A DNA stretch of 64,000 nucleotides from contig NW_027141290.1 of NCBI RefSeq assembly GCF_036365525.1, positions 570,062 through 634,061 of the forward strand, read 5' to 3'. The notes under the pieces were generated by a model. The model was not told the origin of the DNA, did no database searches, and was given only the letters and a program-made list of their open reading frames with translations. The stretch is from Heterodontus francisci. Lineage: Eukaryota. The position numbers and the translations under genes are program-made. Shown piece after piece: positions 180 through 61,788 of the stretch (the stretch's first letter is position 1; each line of letters opens with the position of its first letter).

Positions 180-215
180 AACTGCACGGGAAAGTTGTAG
201 ACATCTGAACTCAAA

Positions 216-256
216 GGCTCTTTTCAGAGCCACCCAGTTCTCTCAGGAAAGAGCTG
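216..256 (+). terminator. Histone 3' stem-loop plus histone downstream element (H1, unit A)
   Basis: GGCTCTTTTCAGAGCC-ACCCA at 216-236 and purine-rich AAAGAGCTG about 15 nt downstream. Confidence 0.95.
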
Positions 257-960
257 TTCCCCCGATCAAATGATCCCTGTCCCGCCGCCGTGTGCACATT
301 TCACAGAGAAATGATGGGAAGTAAATGCAGGATCCCTGGTGACTCGCTGACATACACGACACTCAGCCCTTCCCCCACTCTCTGTAACAAAACAGAGGGA
401 TGTCCCGGCCTCACTGTAACTGGGGATCTGTACGGTACATTCTCAGTTCATGCTCGTTTCACTAATTCAGAGTGAGAGGGTCTATCACAGGAATACTGGC
501 GAGAATCCCGCGTCACAACTCAAACACCAATACATGAGTTTCTCTAATTCAGCTGGGGTAAGGTGTTAGCAAAATACTCAATCCGTCTGGGAGGGGAGGT
601 GTGTGGAAACGGGTTGACTTGTGATCGGAAGCACAGTACTTAGGCGGGTAGATGACCAACTTTTCATTGCAACAGATCCTTATTTAACAGCTGCGGGTTT
701 CTGTTATCTTTGACTATAAAGGCCGAGTCTGGAAGTTTTGTGCTGGGCTCTGTTGTTGAGAGTTTTTTTTTGAATTGGCGGTTCGAGCAAGTGGGAGGCG
801 GTGCTGGAGGATGAAAGACATTTCTCTGCTCTGTCTGTCACTCAGTTTCCTCTCCGCCCCGCCTCTCACTCTCTGTCACATTCTCAGTCAGGTCCGGGCG
901 GGCTGTATAAAAACGGCAGCAGAAACAGCTCGTTTCTCATTCAGCAGTGATTTGAGTGAA

Positions 961-1434
<474 letters not shown>

Positions 1435-1919
1435 TAAGTTTACATATCACTGAAATTTCACTGTCTTTTTTTCTTCATTATTTATCGAACACGTCATGAA
1501 TTAAACGGCTGCATTTGATAATTTATACGTCAGGGTCTGAACTGCCGGCACGAAGCGGGATTTACTGCCGTTATTGTAAGAAATGACTGGCGCTTTATTC
1601 CCGCCATAGACCACTGTTCCAACTGTGTTGCAAGACACAGAGGGGGACTCTAGGACGAAAGAAATAAAGCTACAAGGAGTGAGATTTTATAATTGTCCCC
1701 GCCAAATTAGGTGTTTTTTAATCTTTGCCTTGTTTGCTCATCGGAAATTGGCGGGCTTTTTGAAATTGATTAAATTTCAGTTTCAGTTACAGTTCAACCA
1801 ATCAGTGCACAGCATTTCCCGCCGCTCTTTTACTTCCCGGAGCTGGTTTCAAACTTGACTGATGGACGGGGCTGCATCCAATCACAACACAAGGGCGGTC
1901 CCTCTACTGTCTTAAATAG

Positions 1920-2408
<489 letters not shown>

Positions 2409-2622
2409 GTTTGGCATCAAATAACACAACGGCTCTTTTAAGAGCCACCAAATCGGCAAAACAAAGAGCAGCGATCTCCTGTTGTCGATTCCAGCAGAGA
2501 AAACTGTGGTCTAGAGCAGATCACTTTATTGGAGAGCCTATCATTTTGCAAAAGCTTTTGTTGTGCTTAAACGGTAGATTTGTGAAAATGTCACAAGAGG
2601 CGAGCAGTTAAATGCCCGAATC

Positions 2623-2990
2623 CTAGAAGGGAGAAGGCTGAGGGGAGATCTGATTGAAATGTACAACATTTTGGCGGGTCTGGAGAGAGTGGAAGTGAAG
2701 AGTCTTAGCAGAGAGGTCAGTGACTATGGGCCATATGTTTAAAGTGATTGGTAGAAAAATTAGAGGGCAAACGAGGATTTTATTTTCACCTTGAGGGTGG
2801 TGGGAGTCTGGAACTCACTGCCTGAAAGGGTAGTTGAGGCAGAGACCCCCAATTCATTCAAAAGGAATCTGGATATGCATCTGAAGTGTTGTAATCTGCA
2901 GGGCGACGGACTGAATGCTGGACGGTGGGATTAGAATAGGTGGGTCGTTTTTCGGCCGACACCCACACGATGGGGCAAGTGCCCTCTTTC
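2623..2990 (+). mobile_element. CR1-type LINE 3' fragment between H3 and H2A
   Basis: Encodes degenerate RRLRGDLIEMY...WNSLP and a CR1-like 3' UTR. Also at ~31965-32325 (-) and ~60093-60440 (+); absent from unit C (~45640). Confidence 0.8.
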
Positions 2991-3117
2991 TATCCCAACA
3001 CAAAGCAGCGCTAGCATTATAAAATTGCCGCCTCTCAGACAGCAAGCAGCCCTTGAACAGATAAATTGGGTGGCTCTGAAAAGAGCCTTTGGGTTCGCAG
3101 ATTTAAGTCAGGCCGCT

Positions 3118-3507
3118 TCACTTGCTCTTTGTGCTCGGAGCGCTGGTTTTCTTGGGTAGCAGCACGGCCTGGATATTAGGCAGCACAACGCCCTGAGCGA
3201 TGGTCACCCCTCCCAGCAGCCTGGTGAGCTCCTCGTCGTTGCGGACTGCCAGCTGGAGGTGTCTGGGGATGATGCGGGTCTTCTTGTTGTCCCGGGCCGC
3301 GTTGCCGGCCAGCTCGAGGATTTCAGCTGTCAGATACTCGAGCACAGCAGCCAGATAAACCGGGGCTCCGGCACCCACACGCTCAGCATAGTTCCCCTTT
3401 TTAAGGAACCTGTGAACACGGCCCACCGGGAGCTGCATTCCAGCCCGGGAGGAGCGAGACTTGGCCTTGGACCGAGCTTTACCACCGGTCTTCCCTCTTC
3501 CAGACAT
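3118..3507 (-). CDS. H2A: Histone H2A, full-length ORF with unusual substitutions (unit A)
   Basis: 129 aa [23 protein letters not shown]...[14 protein letters not shown]. Stem-loop at 3072-3087 with CCAAT and TATA upstream. Substitutions at conserved sites (L23M, F25L, N94T, G106V) make function doubtful. Confidence 0.8.
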
Positions 3508-4451
3508 TTCCACAATCTGACAAACACTTTCAGGAAGAATGCTGAGAACCGCCCACAATGGTCCTATTTATACCTTCGGGAGGAATGGTGTCGGCGGCAC
3601 TGGTGATTGGTCACTCAGCACTGGGTGTCATTGTACTCTTCATGTGACCAATCAGAGAGCTGCTGAATTCACCAATCCGGAGACGCCAAGGAGATGAGGG
3701 CGGAAAATAACGGAGCGAAATTGTCAGACTGCAAACGATTTTTCAAATTTGAAAAGCCCGCCAATATATTTGTAAAACAAAGAGCGGCTTCAATATAGAT
3801 CATCACATTTTTTGGTAACTTGGTTTTACCGCAAATATTTTAAAATCTTTTTCATATTGTATTATTCTGCATGTGGTAACAATTTCAGATTCGCTTTCAC
3901 ATTCCACCATCTATTCGGGTTCACTCTCTATCCTTTTTGAAACTTTCTATAACCAGCGGACAGAAAGCCTCTTTCACAGCATTCTGTAACCATTTCAGCT
4001 CAATGTTCCTAATGATACCGCATCACTGATTATAGATTGATCCCTATTATTAGTGAGAGACAACAGCGGAGTGTATAATCTTAGTGTCAGGTGTCAAAGA
4101 GTGAGACTGAGGGTTCCCACACCACCGGGGTTTCTAGATAATGTGCTGATTACTTACTGAGGACAAACTTGATCTCGGGATATGAGTGACTGAGAAATGA
4201 TGCATGTGCGTTAAATCAGATTTTATTATCGAAATACAGCAAAGGGGCCGAAAATGACCGAGTCCGTGAACAAAGCTCACAAATGGTCAGTAATTAATGA
4301 TCGGGACATTATTAAGTAGAGACAGGAAGATCGCACGGGCAGTGAAACTGTATTAACCAGAATCTGTGGGATTAAAACAGAGATCACAAAGGCAGTTGGA
4401 AAATACTTGGTAAAAATATCAAAACAAATTGATATTATAGAGATAATGTTG

Positions 4452-6120
4452 TAGCTTTTTGAGAGACGTGGTGGGTGGCTCTTAAAGTTCGGAACTCGCA
4501 GGAGAATACTGAGATACAGACGACTAGGCTAGATGGGATTGAGGTTCACAAGGAGGAGGTGTTAGCAATTTTGGAAAGTGTGAAAATAGATAAGTCCCCT
4601 GGGCCAGATGGGATTTATCCTAGGATTCTCTGGGAAGCCAGGGAGGAGATTGCAGAGCCGTTGTTGTTGATCTTTAAGTCGTCATTGTCGACAGGAGTAG
4701 TGCCGGAGGACTGGAGGATAGCAAATGTTGTCCCCTTGTTCAAGAAGGGGAGTAGAGACAGCCCTGGTAATTATAGACCTGTGAGCCTTACTTCGGTTGT
4801 GGGTAAAATGTTGGAAAAGGTTATAAGAGACAGGATTTATAATCATCTTGAAAAGAATAAGTTCATTTGCGATAGTCAGCACGGTTTTGTGAAAGGTAGG
4901 TCGTGCCTCACAAACCTTATTGAGTTTTTCGAGAAGGTGACCAAACAGGTGGATGAGGGTAAAGCCGTGGATGTGGTGTATATGGATTTCAGTAAGGCGT
5001 TTGATAAGGTTCCCCACGGTAGGCTATTGCAGAAAATACGCAAGTATGGGGTTGAAGGTGATTTAGAGCTTTGGATCAGAAATTGGCTAGCTGAAAGAAG
5101 ACAGAGGGTGGGGGTTGATGGCAAATGTTCATCCTGGAGTTTAGTTACTAGTGGTGTACCGCAAGGTTCTGTTTTGGGGCCACTGCTGTTTGTCATTTTT
5201 ATAAACGACCTGGATGAGGGTGTAGAAGGGTGGGTTAGTAAATTTGCGGATGACACGAAGGTCGGTGGAGTTGTGGATAGTGTCGAAGGGTGTTGTAGGG
5301 TACAGAGGGACATAGATAGGCTGCAGAGCTGGGCTGAGAGATGGCAAATGGAGTTTAATGTGGAGAAGTGTGAGGTGATTCACTTTGGAAGGAGTAACAG
5401 CAATGCAGAGTACTGGGCTAATGGGAAGATTCTTGGTAGTGTAGATGAGCAGAGAGATCTTGGTATCCAGGTACATAAATCCCTGAAAGTTGCTACCCAG
5501 GTTAATAGGGCTGTTAAGAAGGCATATGGTGTGTTAGCCTTTATTAGTAGGGGGATCGAGTTTCAGAGCCACGGGGTCATGCTGCAGCTGTACAAAACTC
5601 TGGTGAGGCCGAACCTGGAGTATTGCGTGCAGTTCTGGTCACCGCATTATAGGAAGGATGTCGAAGCTTTGGAAAGGGTGCAGAGGAGATTTACTAGGAT
5701 GTTGCCTGGTATGGAAGGAAGGTCTTACGAGGAAAGGCTGAGGGACTTGGGGTTGTTTTCGTTAGAGAGAAGGAGGAGGAGAGGTGACTTAATAGAGACA
5801 TACAAGATAATCAGAGGGTTAGATAGGGTGGATAGTGGATAGGGTGAAAGATATAGGACAGATGTCAGAGGTAGTTTCTTTACGCAGAGAGTAGTAGGGG
5901 CGTGGAACGCCCTGCCTGCAACAGTAGTAGACTCGCCAACTTTAAGGGCATTTAAGTGGTCATTGGATAGACATATGGATGTAAATGGAATAGTGTAGGT
6001 CAGATGATCGGCGCAACATCGAGGGCCGAAGGGCCTGTACTGCGCTGTAATATTCTAATACACATCACCAGAGCTCTATGTTCATGAAGGATGGGGTGAA
6101 AACCGTGTTCGTGATTGGCT
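4452..6120 (-). pseudogene. H2B ghost gene (CDS deleted), split by a CR1 insertion at its TATA box (unit A)
   Basis: Half stem-loop TTAAGAGCCACCCA and HDE-like AAAAAGCT at 4452-4485. The promoter part resumes after the LINE at 6059-6120. Compare the uninterrupted copies at 30.7 and 61.4 kb. Confidence 0.7.
4501..6058 (+). mobile_element. 5'-truncated young CR1/HER1-like LINE (RT domain open to 5842)
   Basis: KSPGPDG, NYRPVSLTS, DFSKAFD, GVPQGSVLGP, FADD motifs. Small internal deletion near 5840. 3' UTR GGGCCGAAGGGCCTGT...TTCTAA. Absent from units B and D. Confidence 0.95.
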
Positions 6121-6222
6121 GGTTTACAATGAAGTCAATTCTTGAGATTCTGTATTTATCTGATTGGGTATCTAAAGTAACCAATCAAATTTAGTGCTCG
6201 GCGAAGCCACAACATTTCGCCG

Positions 6223-18817: not shown

Positions 18818-18889
18818 TGCGATGGTCGGGAATCGAAGCCAGGCCAACTGCTTAAAAGGCAGCTCCGCTCACCACTATACCACCATCGC
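18818..18889 (-). pseudogene. tRNA-Gly-derived 72-nt gene with TTT anticodon (probable pseudogene)
   Basis: GCGATGGTGGTATAGTGGTGAGCGGAGCTGCCTTTTAAGCAGTTGGCCTGGCTTCGATTCCCGACCATCGCA. Perfect 7-bp acceptor stem; damaged D and T stems. Confidence 0.85.
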
Positions 18890-21141: not shown

Positions 21142-21730
21142 CTGTATCTGCCAGTTCCTGGTATGTGAATGTTGATTTTACTCTGCACCTGTCAGTTCCT
21201 GGTATGTGAATGTTGATTTTACTCTGTCCCTGTCAGCTCCTGGTATGTGAATGTTGATTTTACTCTGCACCTGTCAGTTCCTGGTATGTGAATGCTGACT
21301 TTACTCTGCACCTGTCAGTTCCTGGTATGTGAATGTTGGTTTTACTCTGTACCTGTCAATTCCTGGTATGTGAATGTTGATTTTACTCTGCACCTGTCAG
21401 TTCCTGGCATGTGAATGTTGATTTTACTCTGCACCTGTCAGTTCCTGGTATGTGAATGTTGATTTTACTCTGTACCTGTCAGTTCCTGGTATGTGAATGT
21501 TGATTTTACTCTGTACCTGTCAGTTCCTGGTATGTGAATGTTGATTTTACTCTGCACCTGTCAATTCCTGGTATGTGAATGTTGATTTTGCTCTGTACCT
21601 GTCAGTTCCTGGTATGTGAATGTTGATTTTACTCTGTACCTGTCAGTTTCTGGTGTATGAACGTTGATTTTACTCTATGTCTGTCAGTTCCTGGTTTGTG
21701 AAGGTTGATTTTACTCTGTATCTGTCAGTT
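21142..21730. repeat. 41-bp minisatellite, ~14 copies
   Basis: Unit CTCTG(C/T)ACCTGTCAGTTCCTGGTATGTGAATGTTGATTTTA. Confidence 0.97.
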
Positions 21731-24576: not shown

Positions 24577-27414
24577 ATTGCTATTAGTTATTGCTATTAC
24601 TGAGAGTTATTGCTATTACTGAGACTTGGTTGAGGGAAGGGCATGATTGGCAACTAAATATCCCAGGATATCGATGCTTCAGACGGGATAGAGAGGGAGG
24701 TAAAAGGGGTGGAGGAGTTGCATTACTGGTCAAAGAGAATATCACAGCTGTGCTGAAGGAGGGCACTATGGAGGACTCGAGCAGTGAGGCAATATGGACA
24801 GAACTCAGAAATAGGAAGGGTGCGGTAACAATGTTGGGGCTGTACTACAGGCCTCCCAACAGCGAGCGTGAGATAGAGGGACAAATATGTAAACAGATTA
24901 TGGAAAGATGTAGGAGCAACAGGGTGGTGGTGATAGGAGATTTTAATTTTCCCAACATTGACTGGGATTCGCTTAGTGTTAGAGGTCCAGATGGAGCAGA
25001 ATTTGTAAGGAGCATCCAGGAGGGTTTTCTAGAGCAGTATGTAAATAGTCCAACTCGGGAAGGGGCCATACTGGGCCTGGTGTTGGGGAATGAGCCCGGC
25101 CAGGTTGTTGAAGTTTCAGTAGGGGACTACTTTGGGAATAGTGATCACAATTCCGTAAGCTTTAAAATACTCATGGACAAAGACGAGAGTGATCCTAAAG
25201 GAAGAGTGCTAAATTGGGGGAAGGCCAACTATACCAAAATTCGGCAGGAGCTGGGAAATGTAGATTGGGAGCAGCTGTTTGAAGGTAAATCCACATGTGA
25301 TATGTGGGAGGCTTTTAAAGAGAGGTTGATTAGCGTGCAGGAGAGAAATGTTCCTGTGAAAATGAGGGATAGAAATGGCAATATTAGGGAACCATGGATG
25401 ACAGGTGAAATTGTGAGACTAGCTAAGAGGAAAAAGGAAGCATACATAAGGTCTAGGCGGCTGATGAAAGACGAAGCTTTGAAAGAATATCGGGAATGTA
25501 GGACCAATCTGAAACGAGGAATTAAGAGGGCTAAAAGGGGTCATGAAATATCTTTAGCAAACAGGGTTAAGGAAAATCCCAAAGCCTTTTATTCATATAT
25601 AAGGAGAAAGAGGGTAACTAGAGAAAGGATTGGCCCACTAAAGGACAAAGGAGGAATGTTATGCTTGGACTCAGAGAAAATGGGGGAGATTCTAAACGAG
25701 TACTTTGCATCGGTATTCACCGAGGAGAGGGACATGATGGATGTTGAGGTTAGGAACAGATGTTTGATTACTCTGGGTCAAGTCGGCATAAGGAGGGAGG
25801 AAGTGTTGGGTATTCTAAAGGGCATTAAGGTAGACAAGTCCCCAGGTCCGGATGGGATCTATCCCAGGTTACTGAGGGAAGTGAGAGAGGAAATAGCTGG
25901 GGCCTTAACAGATATCTTTGCAGCATCCTTAAACACGGCTGAGGTCCCGGAGGACTGGAGAATTGCTAATGTTGTCCCCTTGTTTAAGAAGGGTAGCAGG
26001 GATAATCCAGGTAATTATAGACCGGTGAGCCTGACGTCAGTGGTAGGGAAGCTGCTGGAGAAGATACTGAGGGATAGGATCTATTCCCATTTGGAAGAAA
26101 ATGGGCTCATCAGTGATAGGCAGCATGGTTTTGTGCAGGGAAGGTCATGTCTTACCAACTTAATAGAATTCTTTGAGGAAGTGACAAAGTTGATTGATGT
26201 GGGAAGGGCTGTCGATGTCATATACATGGACTTCAGTAAGGCGTTTGATAAGGTTCCCCATGGCAGGCTGATGGAGAAAGTGAAGGCGCTTGGGGTCCAA
26301 GGTGTACTAGCTAGATGGATAAAGAACTGGCTGGGCAACAGGAGACAGAGAGTAGCAGTAGAAGGGAGTTTCTCAAAATGGAGACGTGTGACCAGTGGTG
26401 TTCCACAGGGATCCGTGCTGGGACCACTGTTGTTTGTGATATACATTAATGATTTGGAGGAAAGTATAGGTAGACTGATTAGCAAGTTTGCAGACGACAC
26501 TAAGATTGGTGGAGTAGCAGATAGTGAAGGGGACTGTCAGAGAATACAGCAGAATATAGATAAATTGGAGAGTTGGGCAGAGAAATGGCAGATGGAGTTC
26601 AATCAGGGCAAATGCGAGGTGATGCATTTTGGAAGATCCAATTCAAGAGTGAACTATACAGTAAATGGAAAAGTCCTGGGGAAAATTGATGTCCAGAGAG
26701 ATTTGGGTGTTCAGGTCCACTGTTCCCTGAAGGTGGCAACGCAGGTAAATAGAGTGGTCAAGAAGGCATACGGCATGCTTTCCTTCATCGGACGGGGCAT
26801 TGAGTACAAGAGTTGGCAGGTCATGTTACAGTTGTATAGGACTTTGGTTCGGCCACATTTGGAATACTGCGTCCAGTTCTGGTCGCCACATTATCAAAAG
26901 GATGTGGATGCTTTGGAGAGGGTGCAGAGGAGGTTCACCATGATGTTGCCTGGTATGGAGGGCGCTAGCTATGAAGAGAGGTTGAGTAGATTAGGATTAT
27001 TTTCATTAGAAAGACGGAGGTTGAGGGGAGACCTGATTGAGGTGTACAAAATCATGAGAGGTATAGACAGGGTGGATAGCAAGAGGCTTTTTCCCAGAGT
27101 GGGGGTTTCAATTACTAGAGGACACGAGTTCAAAGTGAAAGGGGAAAAGTTTAGGGGGGATATGCGTGGAAAGTTCTTTACGCAGAGGGTGGTGGGCACC
27201 TGGAACGCATTGCCAGCGGAGGTGGTAGATGCGGGCACGATGGAGTCTTTTAAGATGTATCTAGACAGATACATGAATGGGCAGGAAGAAAAGAGATACA
27301 GAACGTTAGAAAATAGGCGACATTTTTAGAGAGAGGATCTGGATCGGCGCAGGCTTGGAGGGCCAAAGGGCCTGTTCCTGTGCTGTAATTATCTTTGTTC
27401 TTTGTTCTTTGTTC
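24577..27414 (+). mobile_element. Young CR1/HER1-like LINE, truncated just inside ORF2
   Basis: TSD TTAATT (24571-24576 / 27415-27420), (TTTGTTC)3 tail, absent from the mirror site at ~14500. Confidence 0.97.
24591..27329 (+). CDS. CR1 ORF2 (APE endonuclease + reverse transcriptase), N-terminally truncated, no native start
   Basis: Uninterrupted ~905 codons with IAITETW, GDFN, SDH, DFSKAFD, PQGSVLGP, FADD. The LDL motif is changed to LGL. Confidence 0.85.
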   Translation: MLLLRVIAITETWLREGHDWQLNIPGYRCFRRDREGGKRGGGVALLVKENITAVLKEGTMEDSSSEAIWTELRNRKGAVTMLGLYYRPPNSEREIEGQICKQIMERCRSNRVVVIGDFNFPNIDWDSLSVRGPDGAEFVRSIQEGFLEQYVNSPTREGAILGLVLGNEPGQVVEVSVGDYFGNSDHNSVSFKILMDKDESDPKGRVLNWGKANYTKIRQELGNVDWEQLFEGKSTCDMWEAFKERLISVQERNVPVKMRDRNGNIREPWMTGEIVRLAKRKKEAYIRSRRLMKDEALKEYRECRTNLKRGIKRAKRGHEISLANRVKENPKAFYSYIRRKRVTRERIGPLKDKGGMLCLDSEKMGEILNEYFASVFTEERDMMDVEVRNRCLITLGQVGIRREEVLGILKGIKVDKSPGPDGIYPRLLREVREEIAGALTDIFAASLNTAEVPEDWRIANVVPLFKKGSRDNPGNYRPVSLTSVVGKLLEKILRDRIYSHLEENGLISDRQHGFVQGRSCLTNLIEFFEEVTKLIDVGRAVDVIYMDFSKAFDKVPHGRLMEKVKALGVQGVLARWIKNWLGNRRQRVAVEGSFSKWRRVTSGVPQGSVLGPLLFVIYINDLEESIGRLISKFADDTKIGGVADSEGDCQRIQQNIDKLESWAEKWQMEFNQGKCEVMHFGRSNSRVNYTVNGKVLGKIDVQRDLGVQVHCSLKVATQVNRVVKKAYGMLSFIGRGIEYKSWQVMLQLYRTLVRPHLEYCVQFWSPHYQKDVDALERVQRRFTMMLPGMEGASYEERLSRLGLFSLERRRLRGDLIEVYKIMRGIDRVDSKRLFPRVGVSITRGHEFKVKGEKFRGDMRGKFFTQRVVGTWNALPAEVVDAGTMESFKMYLDRYMNGQEEKRYRTLENRRHF

Positions 27415-30374: not shown

Positions 30375-30639
30375 TTCTGTAAGTAAGCTGAAGTGCGGAG
30401 GAATGATCCGTGCAGAATGAAAAAGGTGACGGGCTGGTGCCAGCAAAACTGAAACAGTTGAAGAGAGAGTAGCAGAGGGAGTGAGAAAGTCAGGGATATC
30501 GGTGGATAGGTGACAGGCAAGAGCAATGGACTGAGCTGACTGCTGTGAAATGTTGTGGCTTCGCAGAACACTAAATTTGATTGGTTATCTAAAGTAAGCA
30601 ATCAGATAAATACAGAACCTCAAGAATTGACTTCATTGT

Positions 30640-30760
30640 AAACCAGCCAATCACGAACATGGTTTTCACCCATCCTTCATTAACATAGATCTCTGGGGAT
30701 GTGTATAAACTGCGAGTTCCGAATTTAAGAGCCACCCACAACGTCTCTCAAAAAGCTACA
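30640..30760 (+). pseudogene. H2B ghost gene: promoter fused to half stem-loop (unit B)
   Basis: CCAAT 30647-30651, octamer-like CCTTCATTAACATAG, TATAAA 30704-30709, then after ~15 nt TTAAGAGCCACCCA and AAAAAGCT. Confidence 0.75.
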
Positions 30761-31707
30761 ACATTATCTCTATAATATCAATTTGTTTTGATATTTTTAG
30801 CAAGTGACTTGTATTTTCTAAATGCCTTTGTGATCTCTGTTTTAATCCCACAGATTCTGGTTAATACAGTTTCACTGCCCGTGCGATCTTCCTGTCTCTA
30901 CTTAATAATGTCCCGATCATTAATTACTGACCATTTGTGAGCTTTGTTAATGGACGCGTTCATATTCGGCCCCTTTGCTATATTTCGATAATAAAATCTG
31001 ATTGAACGCACAGGCATCATTTCTCAGTCACTCATATCCCGAGATCAAGATTGTCCTCAATAAGTAATCAGCACATTATCTAGAAACCCCGGTGGTGTGG
31101 GAACCCTCAGTCTCACTCTTTGACACCTGACACTAAGATTATAAACTCCGCTGTTGTCTCTCACCAATAGGGATCAGTCTATAATCAGCGATGCAGTATC
31201 ATTAGGAACATTGAGCTGAAATGGTTACAGAATGCTGTGAAAGAGGCTTTCTGTCCGCTGGTTATACAATGTTTCAAAAAGGATAGAGAGTGAACTCGAA
31301 TCGATGGCGGAATGTGAAAGCCAATCTGGAAATTGTTACCACATGTAGAATAATACAATATAAAAAAGATTTTAAAATATTTGCGGTAAAACCAAGTTAC
31401 CTAAAAATGTGATGATCTATATTGAAGCCGCTCTGTGTTTTACAAATATATTGGCGGGATTTTCACATTTGAAAACTCGTTTGCAGTCTTACAATTTCGC
31501 GCCGTTATTTTCCGCCCTCATCTCCTTGGCGTTTCTGGATTGGTGAATTCAGCCGCTCTCTGATTGGTCACATGAAGAGTACAATGACACCCAATGCAGA
31601 GTGACAAATTACCAGTGCCCCCGCCACCATTCCTCTCGAAGGTATAAATGAGACTATTGTGGGCGGTTCTCAACATTCTTCCTGAAAGTATTTGTCAGAT
31701 TGTGGAA

Positions 31708-31886
31708 ATGTCTGGAAGAGGGAAGACCGGTGGTAAAGCTCGGTCCAAGGCCAAGTCTCGCTCGTCCCGGGCTGGACTGCAGTTCCCTGTGGGCCGTGTT
31801 CCCCAAGAAAACCACCGCTCGGAGCACCAAGAGCAAGTGAAGCGGCCTGACTTAAATCTGCGAACCCAAAGGCTCTTTTCAGAGCC
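31708..31886 (+). pseudogene. H2A: Histone H2A pseudogene with large internal deletion (unit B)
   Basis: First ~31 codons (to PVGRV) joined out of frame to the PKKT tail. Stem-loop 31871-31886 intact. Confidence 0.93.
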
Positions 31887-32526
31887 ACCCACTTTGTCTG
31901 TTAAAAGGCTGCTTGCTGTCTGAGAAGGCAATTTTTTAATGCTAGCGCTGCTTTGTATTGGCCTACAACGAGGGCACTTGCCCCATCGTGTATGTCCCGG
32001 CCGAAAAACGGCCCACCTATTCTCATCCCACCTTCCAGCATTCAGACCGTCGCCCTGCAGATTACAGCACTTAAGATGCATATCCAGATTCCTTTTGAAT
32101 GAGTTGGGGGTCTCTGCCTCAACTACCCTTCCAGGCAGTGAGTTCCAGACCACCATCACCCTCTGGGTGAAAATAAAATTCTCGTTTTCCCTCTAATTTT
32201 TCTACCTATCACTTTAAACATATGCCGCACAGTCACTGAACTCTCTGCTAAGACTTTTCACCTCCACTCTCTCCAGGCTCGCCAAAATTTTGCACATTTC
32301 AATCAGATCTCCCCTCAGCCTTCTCAGTACTGGATTCGGGCATTTAGCTGCTCGCCTCTGGCGATATTTGTCAGGGATTTTAGCAAATCTACCGTTTATG
32401 CAAACGAAAGCTTTTACACAATGATCGGCTCTCTAATAAAATGATCTGCTCTAAACCACATTTCTCTGACAACAGGAGATCGCAGATCGTTGTTTTGCCG
32501 ATTTGGTGGCTGTTAAAAGAGATGTT

Positions 32527-32927: not shown

Positions 32928-33710
<783 letters not shown>

Positions 33711-34492: not shown

Positions 34493-35175
34493 TCACTTCT
34501 TCCCAGGGGCTGCTTTCTGAGCCTTTGCTGCTTTCGGCTTGGTCTTGCCCCTTGATGATTGAACTTTCTTGAGCACCTTTCCGCACTCTTGGGTTTTTTG
34601 GCCTTCTTCACAGGAGACTTTTTTGGAAGCGCTGCTTACTTCGCTGGGGATTTCTTTGGCGTTGCCGCCTTCTTGCTGGTCACTTTCTTGCCTGCTGCTT
34701 TCTTCGCTGCCGATTTCTTGGCTGCTAGTTCCTTGACTGGTAATTTCTTGGCTGCTGATTTCTTTGCTGTCACTCTCTTGCCAGCTGTTTTCTTCACGAA
34801 AGTTTTTTTGCCTGCTCCTGACTTGACTTTCTTTCCCACATTTCCCTTGGTTCCCTGCTTCGGGATTCTGAAGGAGCCGGAGGCGCCCGTTCCATTGCAC
34901 TGCACCAGGGAGCCTTTATTCACATTCCTCCTGATACTTTGCTTGATTTGGGTCCTGTACTTCCCCACATCCACACCGCTCCGACCCAGACCCTTCTTTA
35001 TGGCGGGCAGTGAGGTCCCCTTGCGATCGGAGCAATCCGCCACAATCTTGAGGATCTTCTCGCTCAACGTGGGACCGGCTGACTTGTTCCAGGGAGCCGC
35101 TTTCTTCTTCTTAGGAGTCTTGACTTCAGCGGCGGCGGCTGGAGGAGCCGTTTCGGCGCCTGCTGTATCGGTCAT
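34493..35175 (-). pseudogene. H1: Histone H1 with premature stop and downstream frameshift (unit B)
   Basis: ATG 35175, winged-helix domain ending GTGASGSFRI, TAA at 34636-34638, 7-nt deletion near 34583, stem-loop 34441-34456 with one mismatch. Confidence 0.88.
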
Positions 35176-44570: not shown

Positions 44571-45278
44571 ATAAGTTTAGTTTCAATAATTAATAAGTAC
44601 ATTATTTAGAAACCCCGGTTGTGTCGGAACCCTCAGTCTCACTCTTCAACACCTCACACTGAAAATCCACACTCCTCTTTTGTCTCCCACGAATCGGGAC
44701 CAATTTATAATGCGAGATGCGTTTTTTCTAACATTGATCTGAAATGTATCCGGTTGCAGAATGTTGTGAATGAGACTTTTTGCCTGGCGGTTACAGACTG
44801 TTTTAAAACAGGACAGAGAATGAAGCCGAATAGATGTCGGATTGTAAAAGCGAATCTGGAACTTGTGAGAAAATGTGAAATAATACAATATGGGGGATAT
44901 TTTTACATCCCTGTCGTAAGGCTATATGATCTATTAACGTGATCTGCAGTGAAGCCGCTCCTTGTTTTACAAATCTGTTAGCAGGCTTTTCAAATTTGAA
45001 AAAGAAGCTGTTTGGAGTCTGCCAATCCTGAGCGGTTATTTTCCGCCCTATTAACGTGATGCCTCCGGATTGGTGAACTAAGCAACTATCTGATTGGTAA
45101 CATGAACAACACAATGAGAAGCTGCACAGAGTGACCAATCACCAGTGTACTCACTATCATTCATCCAGAAGGGATAAGTGGACGGATTTGATCATTCTTC
45201 CTGAACTGTTTTGTAATGTAGTTTTTACAGATTTTTATGATGAAAGATTTTTTTTTGGAGGGCGCGGGTGGGGTGTTA

Positions 45279-45594
<316 letters not shown>

Positions 45595-45898
45595 TGAGAG
45601 ACGGCAATTTTATAATGCAAGCGCTGCTTTGTGTTGGTATGATTCGGGATTTAGCCGCTTGCCTCTGGAGATATTTGTCAGGCATTTTAACAATTCCAGC
45701 GTTTCTGCGCAAATAAAGCTTTTGTTTAGTCCTAAACTGCTCGCCCCTCCAATAAAATGATCTGTGCACATTGGTTTCGCTGCTCTGGACCACATTTCTC
45801 TGCTGCAGAGATCGCAGCTCTTTGTTTTGCCGATTTGGTGGCTCTTAAAAGAGCCGTTGTGTTATTTAATGCCAAACTCAGTTCGAGGCAGGGTGAGT

Positions 45899-46366
<468 letters not shown>

Positions 46367-46769
46367 CTATTTAAGACAGTTGAGGGACCGCCCTAGTGTT
46401 GTGATTGGATGCAGCCCCGTCCATCAGTCAAGTTTGAAACCAGCTCTGGGAAATAAAAGGGCGGCGGGAAATGCTGCGCCCCAATTGGTTGAACTGTAAC
46501 TGAAATGTAATCGAACTCAAAAAGCCCGCCAATTTCAGATAGCAAAACAAGGCAAAAATTTAAAAAAAAAACTAATTTTGCGGGATGAATTATGAAATCT
46601 GACTCCTTGCAGCTTCATTTATTTCGTCCGAGATCCCACACTGTCTTCCATCTCGGTTTGACTCGGCCCTCACGAATACATTATCACTTGCAGCCATTTC
46701 ATTCATGACGCGCTGAATCAACATGGAAAAGAAACATACAGTAAAACAACGCGACAGAGTTGGGTATCC

Positions 46770-51146: not shown

Positions 51147-53022
51147 ATCTGCAGTACTGCAGACCAATGATCAGACAGCACTGGGAATATGCAGTACTGT
51201 AGACTAATGATCAGACAGCACCGGGAATCTGCAGTACTGTAGACTAATGATCAGACAGCACCGGGAATCTGCAGTACTGTAGACTAATGATCAGACAGCA
51301 CCGGGAATCTGCAGTACTGTAGACTAATGATCAGACAGCACCGGGAATCTGCAGTACTGTAGACTAATGATCAGACAGCACTGGGAATCTGCAGTACTGT
51401 CGACTAATGATCAGACAGCACCGGGAATCTGCAGTACTGTAGACTAATGATCAGACAGCACTGGGAATCTGCAGTACTGTCGACTAATGATCAGACAGCA
51501 CCGGGAATCTGCAGTACTGTAGACTAATGATCAGACAGCACTGGGAATCTGCAGTACTGTAGACTAATGATCAGACAGCACTGGGAATCTGCAGCACTGT
51601 AAACTAATGATCAGGCAGCACCGGGAATCTGCAGTACTGTAGACTAATGATCAGACAGCACCGGGAATCTGCAGTACTGTAGACTAGTGATCAGACAGCA
51701 CCGGGAATCTGCAGTACTGTAGACTAATGATCAGACAGTACCGGGAATCTGCAGTACTGTAGACTAATGATCAGACAGCACCGGGAATCTGCAGAACTGT
51801 AGACTAATGATCAGACAGCACCGGGAATCTGCAGTACTGTAGACTAGTGATCAGACAGCACCGGGATTCTGCAGTACTGTAGACTAATGATCAGACAGCA
51901 CCAGGAATCTGCAGTACTGTAGACTAGTGATCAGACAGCACCGGGAATCTGCAGTACTGTAGACTAGTGATCAGACAGCACCGGGATTCTGCAGTACTGT
52001 AGACTAGTGATCAGACAGCACCGGGAATCTGCAGTACTGTAGACTAGTGATCAGACAGCACCGGGAATCTGCAGTACTGTAGACTAGTGATCAGACAGCA
52101 CCGGGATTCTGCAGTACTGTAGACTAGTGATCAGACAGCACCGGGAATCTGCAGTACTGTAGACTAGTGATCAGACAGCACCGGGATTCTGCAGTACTGT
52201 AGACTAGTGATCAGACAGCACCAGGAATCTGCAGTACTGTAGACTAGTGATCAGACAGCACCGGGAAGCTGCAGTACTGTAGACTAGTGATCAGACAGCA
52301 CCGGGATTCTGCAGTACTGTAGACTAGTGATCAGACAGCACCGGGAATCTGCAGTACTGTAGACTAGTGATCAGACAGCACCGGGAATCTGCAGTACTGT
52401 AGACTAGTGATCAGACAGCACCGGGATTCTGCAGTACTGTAGACTAGTGATCAGACAGCACCGGGAATCTGCAGTACTGTAGACTAGTGATCAGACAGCA
52501 CCGGGATTCTGCAGTACTGTAGACTAGTGATCAGACAGCACCAGGAATCTGCAGTACTGTAGACTAGTGATCAGACAGCACCGGGAAGCTGCAGTACTGT
52601 AGACTAGTGATCAGACAGCACCGGGATTCTGCAGTACTGTAGACTAGTGATCAGACAGCACCGGGAATCTGCAGTACTGTAGACTAGTGATCAGACAGCA
52701 CCGGGATTCTGCAGTACTGTAGACTAGTGATCAGACAGCACCAGGAATCTGCAGTACTGTAGACTAGTGATCAGACAGCACCGGGAATCTGCAGTACTGT
52801 AGACTAGTGATCAGACAGCACCGGGATTCTGCAGTACTGTAGACTAGTGATCAGACAGCACCGGGATTCTGCAGTACTGTAGACTAGTGATCAGACAGCA
52901 CCGGGAATCTGCAGTACTGTAGACTAATGATCAGACAGCACCGGGAATCTGCAGTACTGTAGACTAGTGATCAGACAGCACCGGGATTCTGCAGTACTGT
53001 AGACTAATGATCAGACAGCACC
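51147..53022. repeat. 40-bp minisatellite, ~47 copies
   Basis: Unit GCAGTACTGTAGACTA(A/G)TGATCAGACAGCACCGGGA(A/T)TCT. Confidence 0.98.
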
Positions 53023-56762: not shown

Positions 56763-57545
56763 ATGACCGATACAGCAGCCGGCGAAACGGCTCCTCCAGC
56801 CGCCTCCGCTCAAGTCAAGACACCCAAGAAGAAGAAAGCGGCTCCCCGGAACAATTCAGCCGGTCCCACGTTGAGCGAGAAGATCCTCAAGATTGTGGCG
56901 TATTGCTCCGATCACAGCGGGACCTCACTGCCCTCCATAAAGAAGGCTCTGGGTAGGAGCGGTGTGGATGTGGGTAAGTTCAGGACCCAAATCAAGCAAA
57001 GTATCAGGAGGAATGTGAACAAAGGCTCCCTGGTGCAGAACAGCGGTACGGGCGCCTCCGGCTCCTTGAGAATCCCTAAGCAGGGAACCAAGGGAAATGT
57101 GGGAAAGAAAGTGAAGTCAGGAGCAGCCAAAAAACCTTCAGTGAAGAAAATAGCTGGCAAGAAAGTGACAGCAAAGAAATCAGCAGCCAAGAAATTACCA
57201 GTCAAGAAACTAGCAGCCAAGAAATCGGCAGCGAAGAAAGCAGCAGGCAAGAAAGTGGCCAGCAAGAAGGCGGCAACGCCAAAGAAATCCCCAGCGAAGA
57301 AAGCAGCGCTTCCGAAAAAGTCTCCTGTGAAGAAGGCCAAAAAACCAAGAGTGCCACGGGCGGAAAGGCACTCAAGAAAGTTCAATCATCAAGGGGCAAG
57401 ACCAAACCGAAAGCAGCAAAGGCTCAGAAAGCAGCCCCTGGAAAGAAGTGAAACTGCACGGGAAACTTGTAGACAACTGAACCCAAGGGCTCTTTTCAGA
57501 GCCACCCACATCTCTCAGGAAAGAGCTGATGCCCCGATCAAATGA
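56763..57545 (+). pseudogene. H1: Histone H1 with late frameshift (unit D)
   Basis: ATG 56763; H1 box AAACACA 56611-56617; 1-nt loss at ~57345 shifts past the native TGA (57449-57451) so the ORF reads through the stem-loop at 57488-57503. Confidence 0.88.
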
Positions 57546-58245
57546 TCCCTCTCCCGCCGCCGTGTGCACATTTCACATAGAAATGATGGGAAGTAAATGC
57601 AGGATCCCTGGTGACTCACTGACATACACTACACTCAGCCCTTCCCCTACACTCTGTAACAAAACAGAGGGATGTCCCGGCCTCACTGTAACTGGGGATA
57701 TGTTCGGTACAGTTTCAGTTCATGCTCGTTTCACTAATTCAGAGTGAGAGGGTCTAACACAGGAATACTGGCGAGAAACCCCGAATCACAACTCAAACCC
57801 CAATACATGAGTTTCTCTAATTCAGCTGGGGTAAGGTGTTAGTAAACTGATCAATCCGTCTGGGAGGGGAGGTGTGTGGAAACGGGTTGACTTGTGATCG
57901 GAAGCACTGTACTTAGGCGGATATATGATCAACTTTTAATTGTTATAGATCCTTATCTAAAAGCTCCGGGTTTCTGTTATCATTGACTAGAAAGGCCGCG
58001 TCTGGAAGTTTTGTGCTGAGCTCTGCTGTTGAGCAATGTTTTTTTTTTGAATTGGCGGTTCGAGCAAGTGGGAGGCGGCGCTGGAGGATGAAAGACATTT
58101 CTCTGCTCTGTCTGTCACTCAGTTTCCACTCCGCCCCGCCTCTCACTCTCTGTCCCTTTTTCAGTCAGGTCCGGGCGGGCTGTATAAAAAAGGCAGCAGA
58201 AACAGCTCGTTTCTCATTCAGCAGTGATTTGACTGAAGAAGCGTC

Positions 58246-58603
<358 letters not shown>

Positions 58604-58942
58604 ACCCAAAGACTCACAGAGAGAGCAGTGACATTGGAATTGGAATTAATAAGATCAAGTTATCTGCATATTGTTTATCTTTATCAACAACGGCTTTTAT
58701 ACATCATTACAGTCTCTCATTAAACTTACATATCATAGAAATTTCACTGTCTTTTTTTGTTCATTGTTTATCAAACGCATCATGAATTAAACGGTTGCAT
58801 TTGATAATTTATACGTGAGGGTCTGAACTGCCGGCACGAAGCGGGATTTACTGCCGTTATAGTTAGTAATGACTGGCGCTTTATTCCCGCCAGAGACCAC
58901 TATTCAAACTGTGTTGTAAGACACAGAGGGGGATCTAGGACT

Positions 58943-59103
58943 TTAGAATTAGAATTAGAACATTACAGCGCAGTACAGGCCCTTCGGCCCTCGATGTTGC
59001 GCCGACCCGTGAAACCTAATTCTAATTCTAATCTAATCTACACCATCTGACATACACTATTCCATTTTCATCCATATGTCTATCCAATGACCACTTGACC
59101 AAT
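58943..59103 (-). mobile_element. Very short CR1 3' end insertion
   Basis: Same 3' UTR as the LINE at 4501-6058, (TTCTAA)n tail, GACT on both sides. Absent from unit A (~1655). Confidence 0.85.
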
Positions 59104-59375
59104 GACTAACAAATAAAGCTACAGGGAGTGAGATTTTATAATTGTTCCCGTTATATTAGGTGTCGTTTCATAAACAATCTTTGCCTTGTTTGCTAATCTG
59201 AGATTGGCGGGCTTTTTGAAATTGATTACATTTCAGTTTCAGTTGCAGTTCAACCAATCAGGGCCCAGCATTTCCCACCGCCCTTTTCCTTCCCAGAGCT
59301 GGTTTCAAACTTGTCTGATGGACGGGGCTGCATCCAATCACAACACTAGGGCGGTCCCTCTACTGTCTTAAATAG

Positions 59376-59843
<468 letters not shown>

Positions 59844-60440
59844 ACTCACCCTGCCTCGAACTGAGTTTGGCATTAAATAACACAACGGCTCTTTTAAGAG
59901 CCACCAAATCGGCAAAACAAAGAGCTGCGATCTCTGCAGCAGAGAAATGTGGGGGGGGCGAGCAGTTTAGGACTAACCAAAAGCTTTATTTGCCGATCAT
60001 TGTGTAAAAGCTTTCGTTTGTATATACGGTAGAATTGCTAAAATCCCTGACAAATATCACAAGAGGGAAGCCGCTAAATGCCCGAATCCAGTACGGAGAA
60101 GGCTGAGGGAAGATCTGATTGAAATGTACAACATTTTGGCGGGACTGGAGAGAGTGGAGGTGAAGAGTCTTAGCAGAGAGGTCATTGACAATGGGGCATA
60201 TGTTTAAAGTGATTGGTAGAAAAATTAGAGGGAAAACGAGGATTTTATTTTCACCCAGAGGGTGGTGGGGGTCTGCCACACACTGCCTGAAAGGGTAGTT
60301 GAGGCAGAGACCCCCAACCTATTGAAAAGGAATCTGGATATGCATCTCAAGTGCTGTAATCTGCAGGGCGATGGACTGAATGCTGGAAGGTGGGATTAGA
60401 ATAGGTGGGTCGTTTTTCGGCCGGCACCGACACGATGGGC

Positions 60441-60470: not shown

Positions 60471-61403
60471 TTCCACAATCTGACAAACACTTTCAGGAAG
60501 ACTGCTGAGAAAAGCCCACAATAGTCCCATTTATACCTTCGGGAGGAATGGTGTCGGGGGCGCTGGTGATTGGTCACTCTGCACTGGGTGTCATTGCACT
60601 CTTCATTTGGCCAATCAGAGAGCTGCCAATCCGGAGACGCCAAGGAGATGAGGGCGGAAAATAACGGCGCGAAATTGTCAGACTGCAAACGATTTCTCAA
60701 ATTTGAAAAGCCCGCCAATATATTTGTAAAATACAGAGCGGTTTCAATATAGATCATCACATTTATAGGTAACTTGGTTTGACAGCAAATACTTTAAAAT
60801 CTTTTTCATATTGTATTATTCCACATGTGGTAACAATTTCCAGATTCACTTTCACATTCCGCCATCTATTCGGGTTTACACTCTATCCTTTTTGAAACAT
60901 TCTATAACCAGCGGACAGAAAGCCTCTTTCACAGCATTCTGTAACCATTTCAGCTCAATGTTCCTAATGATACCGCATCACTGACTATAGATTGATCCCC
61001 ATTGGTGAGAGACAACAGCGGAGTGTATAATCTTAGTGTCAGGTGTCAAAGAGTGAGACTGAGGGTTCCCACACCACCGGGGTTTCTAGATAATGTGCTG
61101 ATTACTTATTGAGGACAAACTTGATCTCGAGATATGAGTGACTGAGAAATGATGCCTGTGCGTGAAATCAGATTGTATTGTCGAAATGCAGCAGAGGGGC
61201 CGAATATGAACGCGTCCGTGAACAAAGCTCACAAATGGTCAGTAATTAATGATCGGGACATTATTAAGTAGAGACAGGAAGATCGCACGGGCAGTGAAAC
61301 TGTATTAACCAGAATCTGTGGGATTAAAACAGAGATCACAAAGGCAGTTAGAAAATACCTGCTAAAAATATCAAAACAAATTGATATTATAGAGATAATG
61401 TTG

Positions 61404-61520
61404 TAGCTTTTTGAGAGACGTTGTGGGTGGCTCTTAAAGTTCGGAACTCGCATTTTATACACATCCCCAGAGCTCCATGTTAATGAAGAATGGGGTGAAA
61501 ACCATGTTCGTGATTGGCTG
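61404..61520 (-). pseudogene. H2B ghost gene (unit D)
   Basis: Minus strand CCAAT...CTTCATTAACATG...TATAAAA-TGCGAGTTCCGAACT-TTAAGAGCCACCCA...AAAAAGCT. Confidence 0.75.
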
Positions 61521-61788
61521 GTTTACAATGAAGTCAATTCTTGAGATTCTGTATTTACCTGATTGGGTATCGAAAGTAACCAATCAAATTTAGTGCTCGG
61601 CGAAGCCACAATATTTCGCCGCAGTCAGCTCATCCATTGCTTTTGCCTGTCACCTATCCACCGATATCCCTGACTTCCTCACTCCCTCTGCTACTCTCTC
61701 TTCAACTGTTTCAGTTCTGTTGGCACCAGCCCGTCACCTTTTTCATTCTGCCCGGATCATTACTCCTCACTTCAGCTTACTCACAGAA

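Follow-up and report, generated by a model that had tools for sequence, protein, structure and literature searches.

Why should a histone unit retain what looks like an H2B promoter with no H2B gene behind it, and what became of the units that share this arrangement? The question is raised by nucleotides 30640–30760 of the window, the whole 64,000-nt stretch of Heterodontus francisci DNA analysed here (NW_027141290.1, positions 570,062–634,061, or C1244 570062–634061); genome-wide counts cover the 6.0-Gb genome. The locus is very probably the scar of a single 465-bp deletion from an H1-H4-H3-H2A-H2B unit. The scar itself is likely inert. The four genes left behind are likely to be working at another site in the genome, where some 20 units form an array; the three copies in the window are dispersed duplicates, and broken.

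Anatomy of the H2B ghost in the window

The orphan H2B promoter of unit B (30560..30722, plus strand) aligns at 74–85% with the promoters of intact H2B genes. On the same strand its sequence contains CCAAT (30647–30651), a damaged octamer, ATTAACAT (30679–30686), and TATAAA (30704–30709), followed by 14 nt leading to half a hairpin. The deletion junction was placed at 30722..30724 (plus strand) from TATA-to-loop distances and intact alleles. Beyond it the plus strand carries the 3' half of an H2B stem-loop, ACCCA and a purine-rich downstream element (30724..30757); TTTAAGAGCC (30724–30733) represents part of the loop and the 3' arm, ACCCA occupies 30734–30738, and the downstream element is AAAAAGCT (30750–30757), which we take to be the HDE. 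The initial annotation had read this segment as an H2B promoter fused to half a stem-loop, and the flanks do match both sides of an intact H2B gene at 74–79% identity. It had also held that the window contains no H2B coding sequence; tblastn with H2B of this genome found none in the 64 kb. Eight full histone stem-loops were detected by Rfam in the window, and the same scan gave no RF00032 match at the ghosts of units A, B and D, in all three of which the 5' arm of the hairpin has been deleted.

Sequence comparison showed the ghost of unit D (61269..61604, minus strand) to have the same anatomy as that of unit B, with CCAAT at 61517, an octamer-like box at 61484, TATA at 61459 and the half hairpin at 61438. 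In unit A (4317..6205, minus strand; half hairpin at 4486) the ghost is split inside its TATA box by a 1,557-bp 5'-truncated LINE fragment with a reverse transcriptase domain (4501..6057, plus strand; Pfam RVT_1), presumably CR1-like. The order CCAAT, octamer-like box, TATAAA and half stem-loop had been attributed to all three units; it holds for B and D but not for A, where the insertion destroyed the TATA box, with four A's lost relative to the empty allele at L197.

The neighbouring histone genes are variously damaged. Unit B contains an H2A with an internal deletion and, by sequence and Rfam, an intact stem-loop (31708..31911, plus strand), and on the minus strand an H3 remnant of codons 57–136 only (32931..33170), a full-length H4 with 97/103 residues canonical (33390..33701) and an H1 truncated at 179 aa (34636..35175). 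In unit D (56763..60439, plus strand) the sequence shows an H1 with an altered tail (260 aa), a frameshifted H4, an H3 open frame (134/136) and a deleted H2A. Unit A (211..3507; sequence and Rfam) retains the 3' end of H1, a broken H4, an H3 without a stop (143 aa) and a full-length H2A (117/129). A further unit, C (44573–46644), consists of H3 and an H2A deleted up to its hairpin, and has no ghost; the region upstream of its H2A resembles the ghost family at only about 74%, its H3 side at 92–93%. The window also contains tandem arrays at 21142–21730 and 51147–53022 (41-bp and 40-bp units), an 853-aa reverse-transcriptase-like ORF (24768–27329) akin to the fragment in unit A, and a weak Rfam tRNA match (18818–18889, minus strand).

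The deleted gene and the spread of the junction

Intact paralogs were sought with a pattern that places a complete hairpin ahead of the same 3' flank; it gave 93 matches genome-wide, 30 of them fetched. As had been predicted for the flanks 30550–30720 and 30725–30900, an H2B-type ORF of at least 100 aa lies between them in 26/30; two others carry a different deletion and two have no ORF of that type and length. The best solved-structure matches of the ORF product are H2B chains (E ~1e-63). Aligned to the intact locus L061, the ghost is alike on both sides of the H2B gene: identity is 74% across the 304 nt before it and 79% across the 971 nt after it. TATA and the loop are 486 nt apart in 23/27 intact promoters but 21 nt apart in the ghost reference, and therefore 465 bp were deleted: the 5' UTR, the H2B coding sequence, the 3' UTR and the 5' arm of the hairpin. 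Since the 5' break lies some 19–21 nt past the first T of TATA, the transcription start site, judged by its usual distance from TATA, was probably lost as well. Microhomology-driven deletion was considered and is unsupported, the ambiguity at the junction being at most 1–2 bases with no clear microhomology.

Intact quintets, ordered H1> H4> H3> <H2A <H2B, form an array at C45 8.7–14.3 Mb and have the same gene order and polarity as the ghost units. Their H2B promoters bear an octamer 25 bp before TATA, as ATTAGCAT in 23/27, ATTTGCAT in 3/27 and ATCAGCAT in 1/27. The identification of the box as the H2B subtype element thus stands for all 27 intact promoters, while the ghost box is a damaged version: ATTAACAT in 55/66 ghosts and further changed in the rest, the G being kept in 0/66 ghosts versus 27/27 intact promoters. 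The damage preceded amplification. A closer intact parent was sought among the 93 full-hairpin matches, none of which has the exact ghost-type flank. No near-identical parent was thus found; the closest intact units differ from the ghosts by about 16% (15.8% in noncoding DNA, ghosts against intact quintets).

The junction pattern matched 57 times genome-wide, against none for the reversed control. The promoter pattern matched 99 times, 66 of ghost type and 33 of intact type, all 33 of the latter in the intact quintet array (here C45 8.8–14.3 Mb). When the ghost-type promoters were fetched, 65/66 proved to be fused at the same place, the 66th being unit A. None of the 66 stands before an H2B gene, and none of the 66 units has H2B coding sequence. 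In the tree all ghost units form one clade, which together with the common junction position bears out the proposal that one deletion removed the H2B coding sequence and half the hairpin before amplification. Amplification had been put at three copies or more; the figure is amended to 66, while starts of the corresponding H2B type number 104 genome-wide (99 of the 100 listed are in the intact quintet array). When near-identical copies are merged at 0.2, 0.5 or 1%, the number of groups falls to 56, 52 or 42, and part of the 66 may be alleles or assembly duplicates.

Units A, B and D are mutually 6.6–7.0% apart. B-type and D-type copies form a clade of eight each and are paired 30–35 kb apart at eight places, an arrangement that points to segmental duplication. 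In three mosaic ghosts (L195, L164, L106) one side is 99–100% and the other 90–92% like unit B, which suggests exchange between copies near the junction. Sequencing runs were also screened. One contig of run X8, whose coded and unverified label points to a second organism, spans the junction, reaching 124 nt to one side of it and 56 nt to the other. Run X5, of uncertain run type, yielded a contig across the ghost junction at depth 384, and the intact promoter was covered at 573, so that this coverage is no sign of transcription. Organism C gave loose ends of intact type only, which is no proof that the ghost is absent there; in the one run on record as RNA, only a spacer piece was covered.

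These observations are consistent with the following course of events. A 465-bp deletion removed H2B from an H1-H4-H3-H2A-H2B unit, the break presumably being repaired by end joining; H2B protein supplied from other loci may have made the loss harmless; and the H2B-less units could then have spread through unequal crossing-over and segmental duplication.

Selection in the core array, decay elsewhere

The ghost units comprise a core clade of 21 (19 at C45 17.2–19.2 Mb and two on C117) and 45 dispersed units, including A, B and D of the window. All four full ORFs are kept in 14/21 core units versus 0/45 dispersed ones. Among the 21 core units full ORFs number 19 for H2A and 18 each for H3, H4 and H1, and the stem-loops of H2A, H3, H4 and H1 are present in 21/21, 19/20, 16/20 and 19/20. 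Values of dN/dS were derived from parsimony counts, recombination inside the array inflating tree-based counts, and stem branches were excluded since rooting makes their assignment arbitrary. The core shows 78 nonsynonymous, 128 synonymous and two stop changes, with dN/dS of 0.21 (H3 0.04, H2A 0.14, H4 0.14, H1 0.40); the intact quintets give 0.19 (n=5). The corresponding counts for the dispersed units are 534, 266 and 20, with dN/dS of 0.70 (H3 0.67, H2A 0.73, H4 0.43, H1 0.84) against a computed neutral expectation of 0.64–0.97, below which dispersed H4 falls. The contrast between core and dispersed units survives one count per allele in all four genes (Fisher p 0.0006, 0.0002, 0.009 and 0.03). 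Core H3, H4, H2A and H1 have been under purifying selection after the deletion and the dispersed copies decay near-neutrally; A, B and D are dead dispersed pseudogene units, carried as passengers. From the selection acting on them, the core quartets are likely to be expressed.

It could be argued that all H2B-less units are pseudogenes, and that the core is clean only through recent homogenisation or conversion from intact histone genes. Core units are indeed closer to each other in noncoding sequence (2.8%) than the dispersed units are (6.3%), seven of the 21 are short of one or more full ORFs (in one case the contig ends inside the unit), and at diagnostic sites quintet alleles fill 24/120 cells in core H3, as against 1/269 in dispersed H3, so that some conversion of core H3 from intact units is possible. 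Homogenisation, however, spreads replacement changes as readily as synonymous ones, and cannot bring dN/dS down. Nor can conversion from quintets explain core H1, where quintet alleles are nearly absent (25/2,117 cells) and yet dN/dS is 0.40, versus 0.84 in dispersed H1, or core H2A (24/441 cells; dN/dS 0.14). With core H3 also fully canonical in 17/18 ORFs, this explanation is very unlikely, and selection on the core is retained.

The ghost lineage has its own H1 type (229 aa in the core), a motif of which has 59 exact matches genome-wide; 56 lie beside known ghosts by coordinates, and the other three belong to split or contig-cut ghost-type units. Two loci, L211 and L212, are ghost-type H1-H4 halves without H3 or H2A, 45–49 kb from A-type units. 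No histone gene, H2B included, was found in any of 12 stretches covering 120 kb of spacer in the 2-Mb core array; of these, 80 kb separate two adjacent units. An H4 start MTGRG, with Thr for Ser1, occurs in 8/9 full quintet H4 genes (L135, L143–L150) and 6/18 core H4 ORFs.

The selection seen in the genes does not extend to the orphan promoter. In core units the substitution rate over the 169 bp before the junction is 1.22, versus 0.8–1.1 in upstream DNA, with 0.54 in the H2A promoter, and between CCAAT and TATA 12 variant alleles were counted versus 9.2 expected; the ghost promoter is no more constrained than flanking DNA. A regulatory role for the remnant would have CCAAT and TATA helping to drive the H2A gene that lies some 1 kb further downstream, or the surviving downstream element ending stray transcripts before H2A. 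CCAAT is unchanged in 66/66 ghosts (TATAAAA is found in 18/21 core units), and the 41 bp of half hairpin and downstream element show only three changes in the core, a rate of 0.35. Constraint on the half hairpin was nevertheless rejected: the 41 bp are equally slow in dead dispersed copies (0.5), and 44/101 noncoding windows of the core vary as little. Taken whole, the promoter is unconstrained, its octamer is damaged in all copies, and 3' processing requires the full hairpin as SLBP site (PMC5706932). A regulatory remnant is hence most improbable; the ghost promoter is probably an inert scar, to judge from its pattern of change.

Known histone systems and the probably tolerated loss of H2B

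The usual view is that the four core genes stay linked in repeated histone units, in part to equalise dosage. A selected array that lacks one core gene and keeps H1 falls outside the unit types found in the available parts of a 2026 review of more than 250 species (PMC13525598), whose text and two supplements do not mention sharks. The quartet is defined there as exactly H2A, H2B, H3 and H4, without H1; the ghost units hold H1, H4, H3 and H2A, so that, unlike those quartets, they keep H1 and miss a core histone. The nearest parallel in that text is the mixed quartet/quintet locus of Drosophila virilis, likewise a repeated multi-gene unit in which a derived form minus one gene stands beside complete quintets. 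The tandem quintets and quartets described there differ in that H2B here is head to tail with H2A, with no common divergent promoter, and in that the units lie tens of kb apart and do not abut. The birth-and-death evolution of replication-dependent histone genes, pseudogenes included, that the same source describes is matched by selected units beside many dead copies, by synonymous divergence with conserved protein and by divergent H1 types; unlike its pseudogenes, the ghost is a clean deletion scar without coding remnant, inside units whose other genes are selected. Vertebrate H2B promoters carry the Oct-1 octamer ATTTGCAT (PMC5706932), and the intact paralogs agree with ATTAGCAT or ATTTGCAT, whereas the ghosts do not.

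The copies in the window also invite comparison with another class. Dispersed histone orphons are copies outside the main array that moved as single genes. Like them, the window copies are found away from the selected array and in decay; unlike them, they moved as whole multi-gene blocks, the B-D pair recurring eight times. A large histone cluster is reported from a stingray, its unit structure not being given in the available part of that preprint (10.1101/2025.06.08.657570). In the literature searched, where subscription and older cloning papers are thinly covered, there was no account of a unit lacking H2B, nor of how histone units are built in sharks. The process is known birth-and-death evolution, and the selected H1-H4-H3-H2A unit is a variant for which that search found no description. 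The scar itself is ordinary decay. The common junction is a dated marker that ORF annotation does not reveal; it sorts living from dead copies and allows one to ask how the H2A:H2B balance holds across loci.

A bolder and rather doubtful proposal is that histone supply in this lineage has become divided among specialised arrays. One of them, the H1-H4-H3-H2A array without H2B, would have a linker histone and H2A types of its own and would have been under selection since before two species parted; it would act alongside separate H2B-rich arrays, and nucleosome stoichiometry would be balanced across loci, perhaps for one tissue or stage.

The loss of H2B was probably tolerated and not selected, some 1,400 further H2B ends being present in the genome. 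A second, independent deletion of H2B is present in eight copies at C45 8.96–13.83 Mb, within the intact quintet array (L064, L073, L147); it fuses sequence from before the promoter with the last H2B codons and leaves the full hairpin in place. Of 11 H3-centred units in the quintet array, seven have a full-length H2B and ten a full-length H2A. A single unit can therefore do without H2B. That the loss was favoured, as a rebalancing of histone dosage where H2B genes far outnumber H3, would accord with the genome-wide motif counts (1,409 for H2B, by 3' ends, versus 246 for H3, with 1,027 for H4) and with two independent deletions that both spread, to 66 and eight copies. The counts include pseudogenes, however, and selection for the loss is doubtful because H2A, commoner still (2,142), is kept, and is selected in the core; H2A has also been repeatedly deleted in dispersed units. 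Favoured loss is accordingly judged highly improbable, and tolerance remains the preferred account.

Other arrangements of H2B were noted in the same genome. At L091 and L094 (C45 8.79 and 8.86 Mb) the intact array alternates between quintets and H2B-H2A doublets, the doublets having an inverted C-terminal fragment of H2B behind them. Convergent, tail-to-tail H2B-H2B pairs about 0.9 kb apart occur at L097–L101 and L112–L113, where the 10 kb read contain no further histone. The C35 family contains a second H2B type, which starts MVEEKK.
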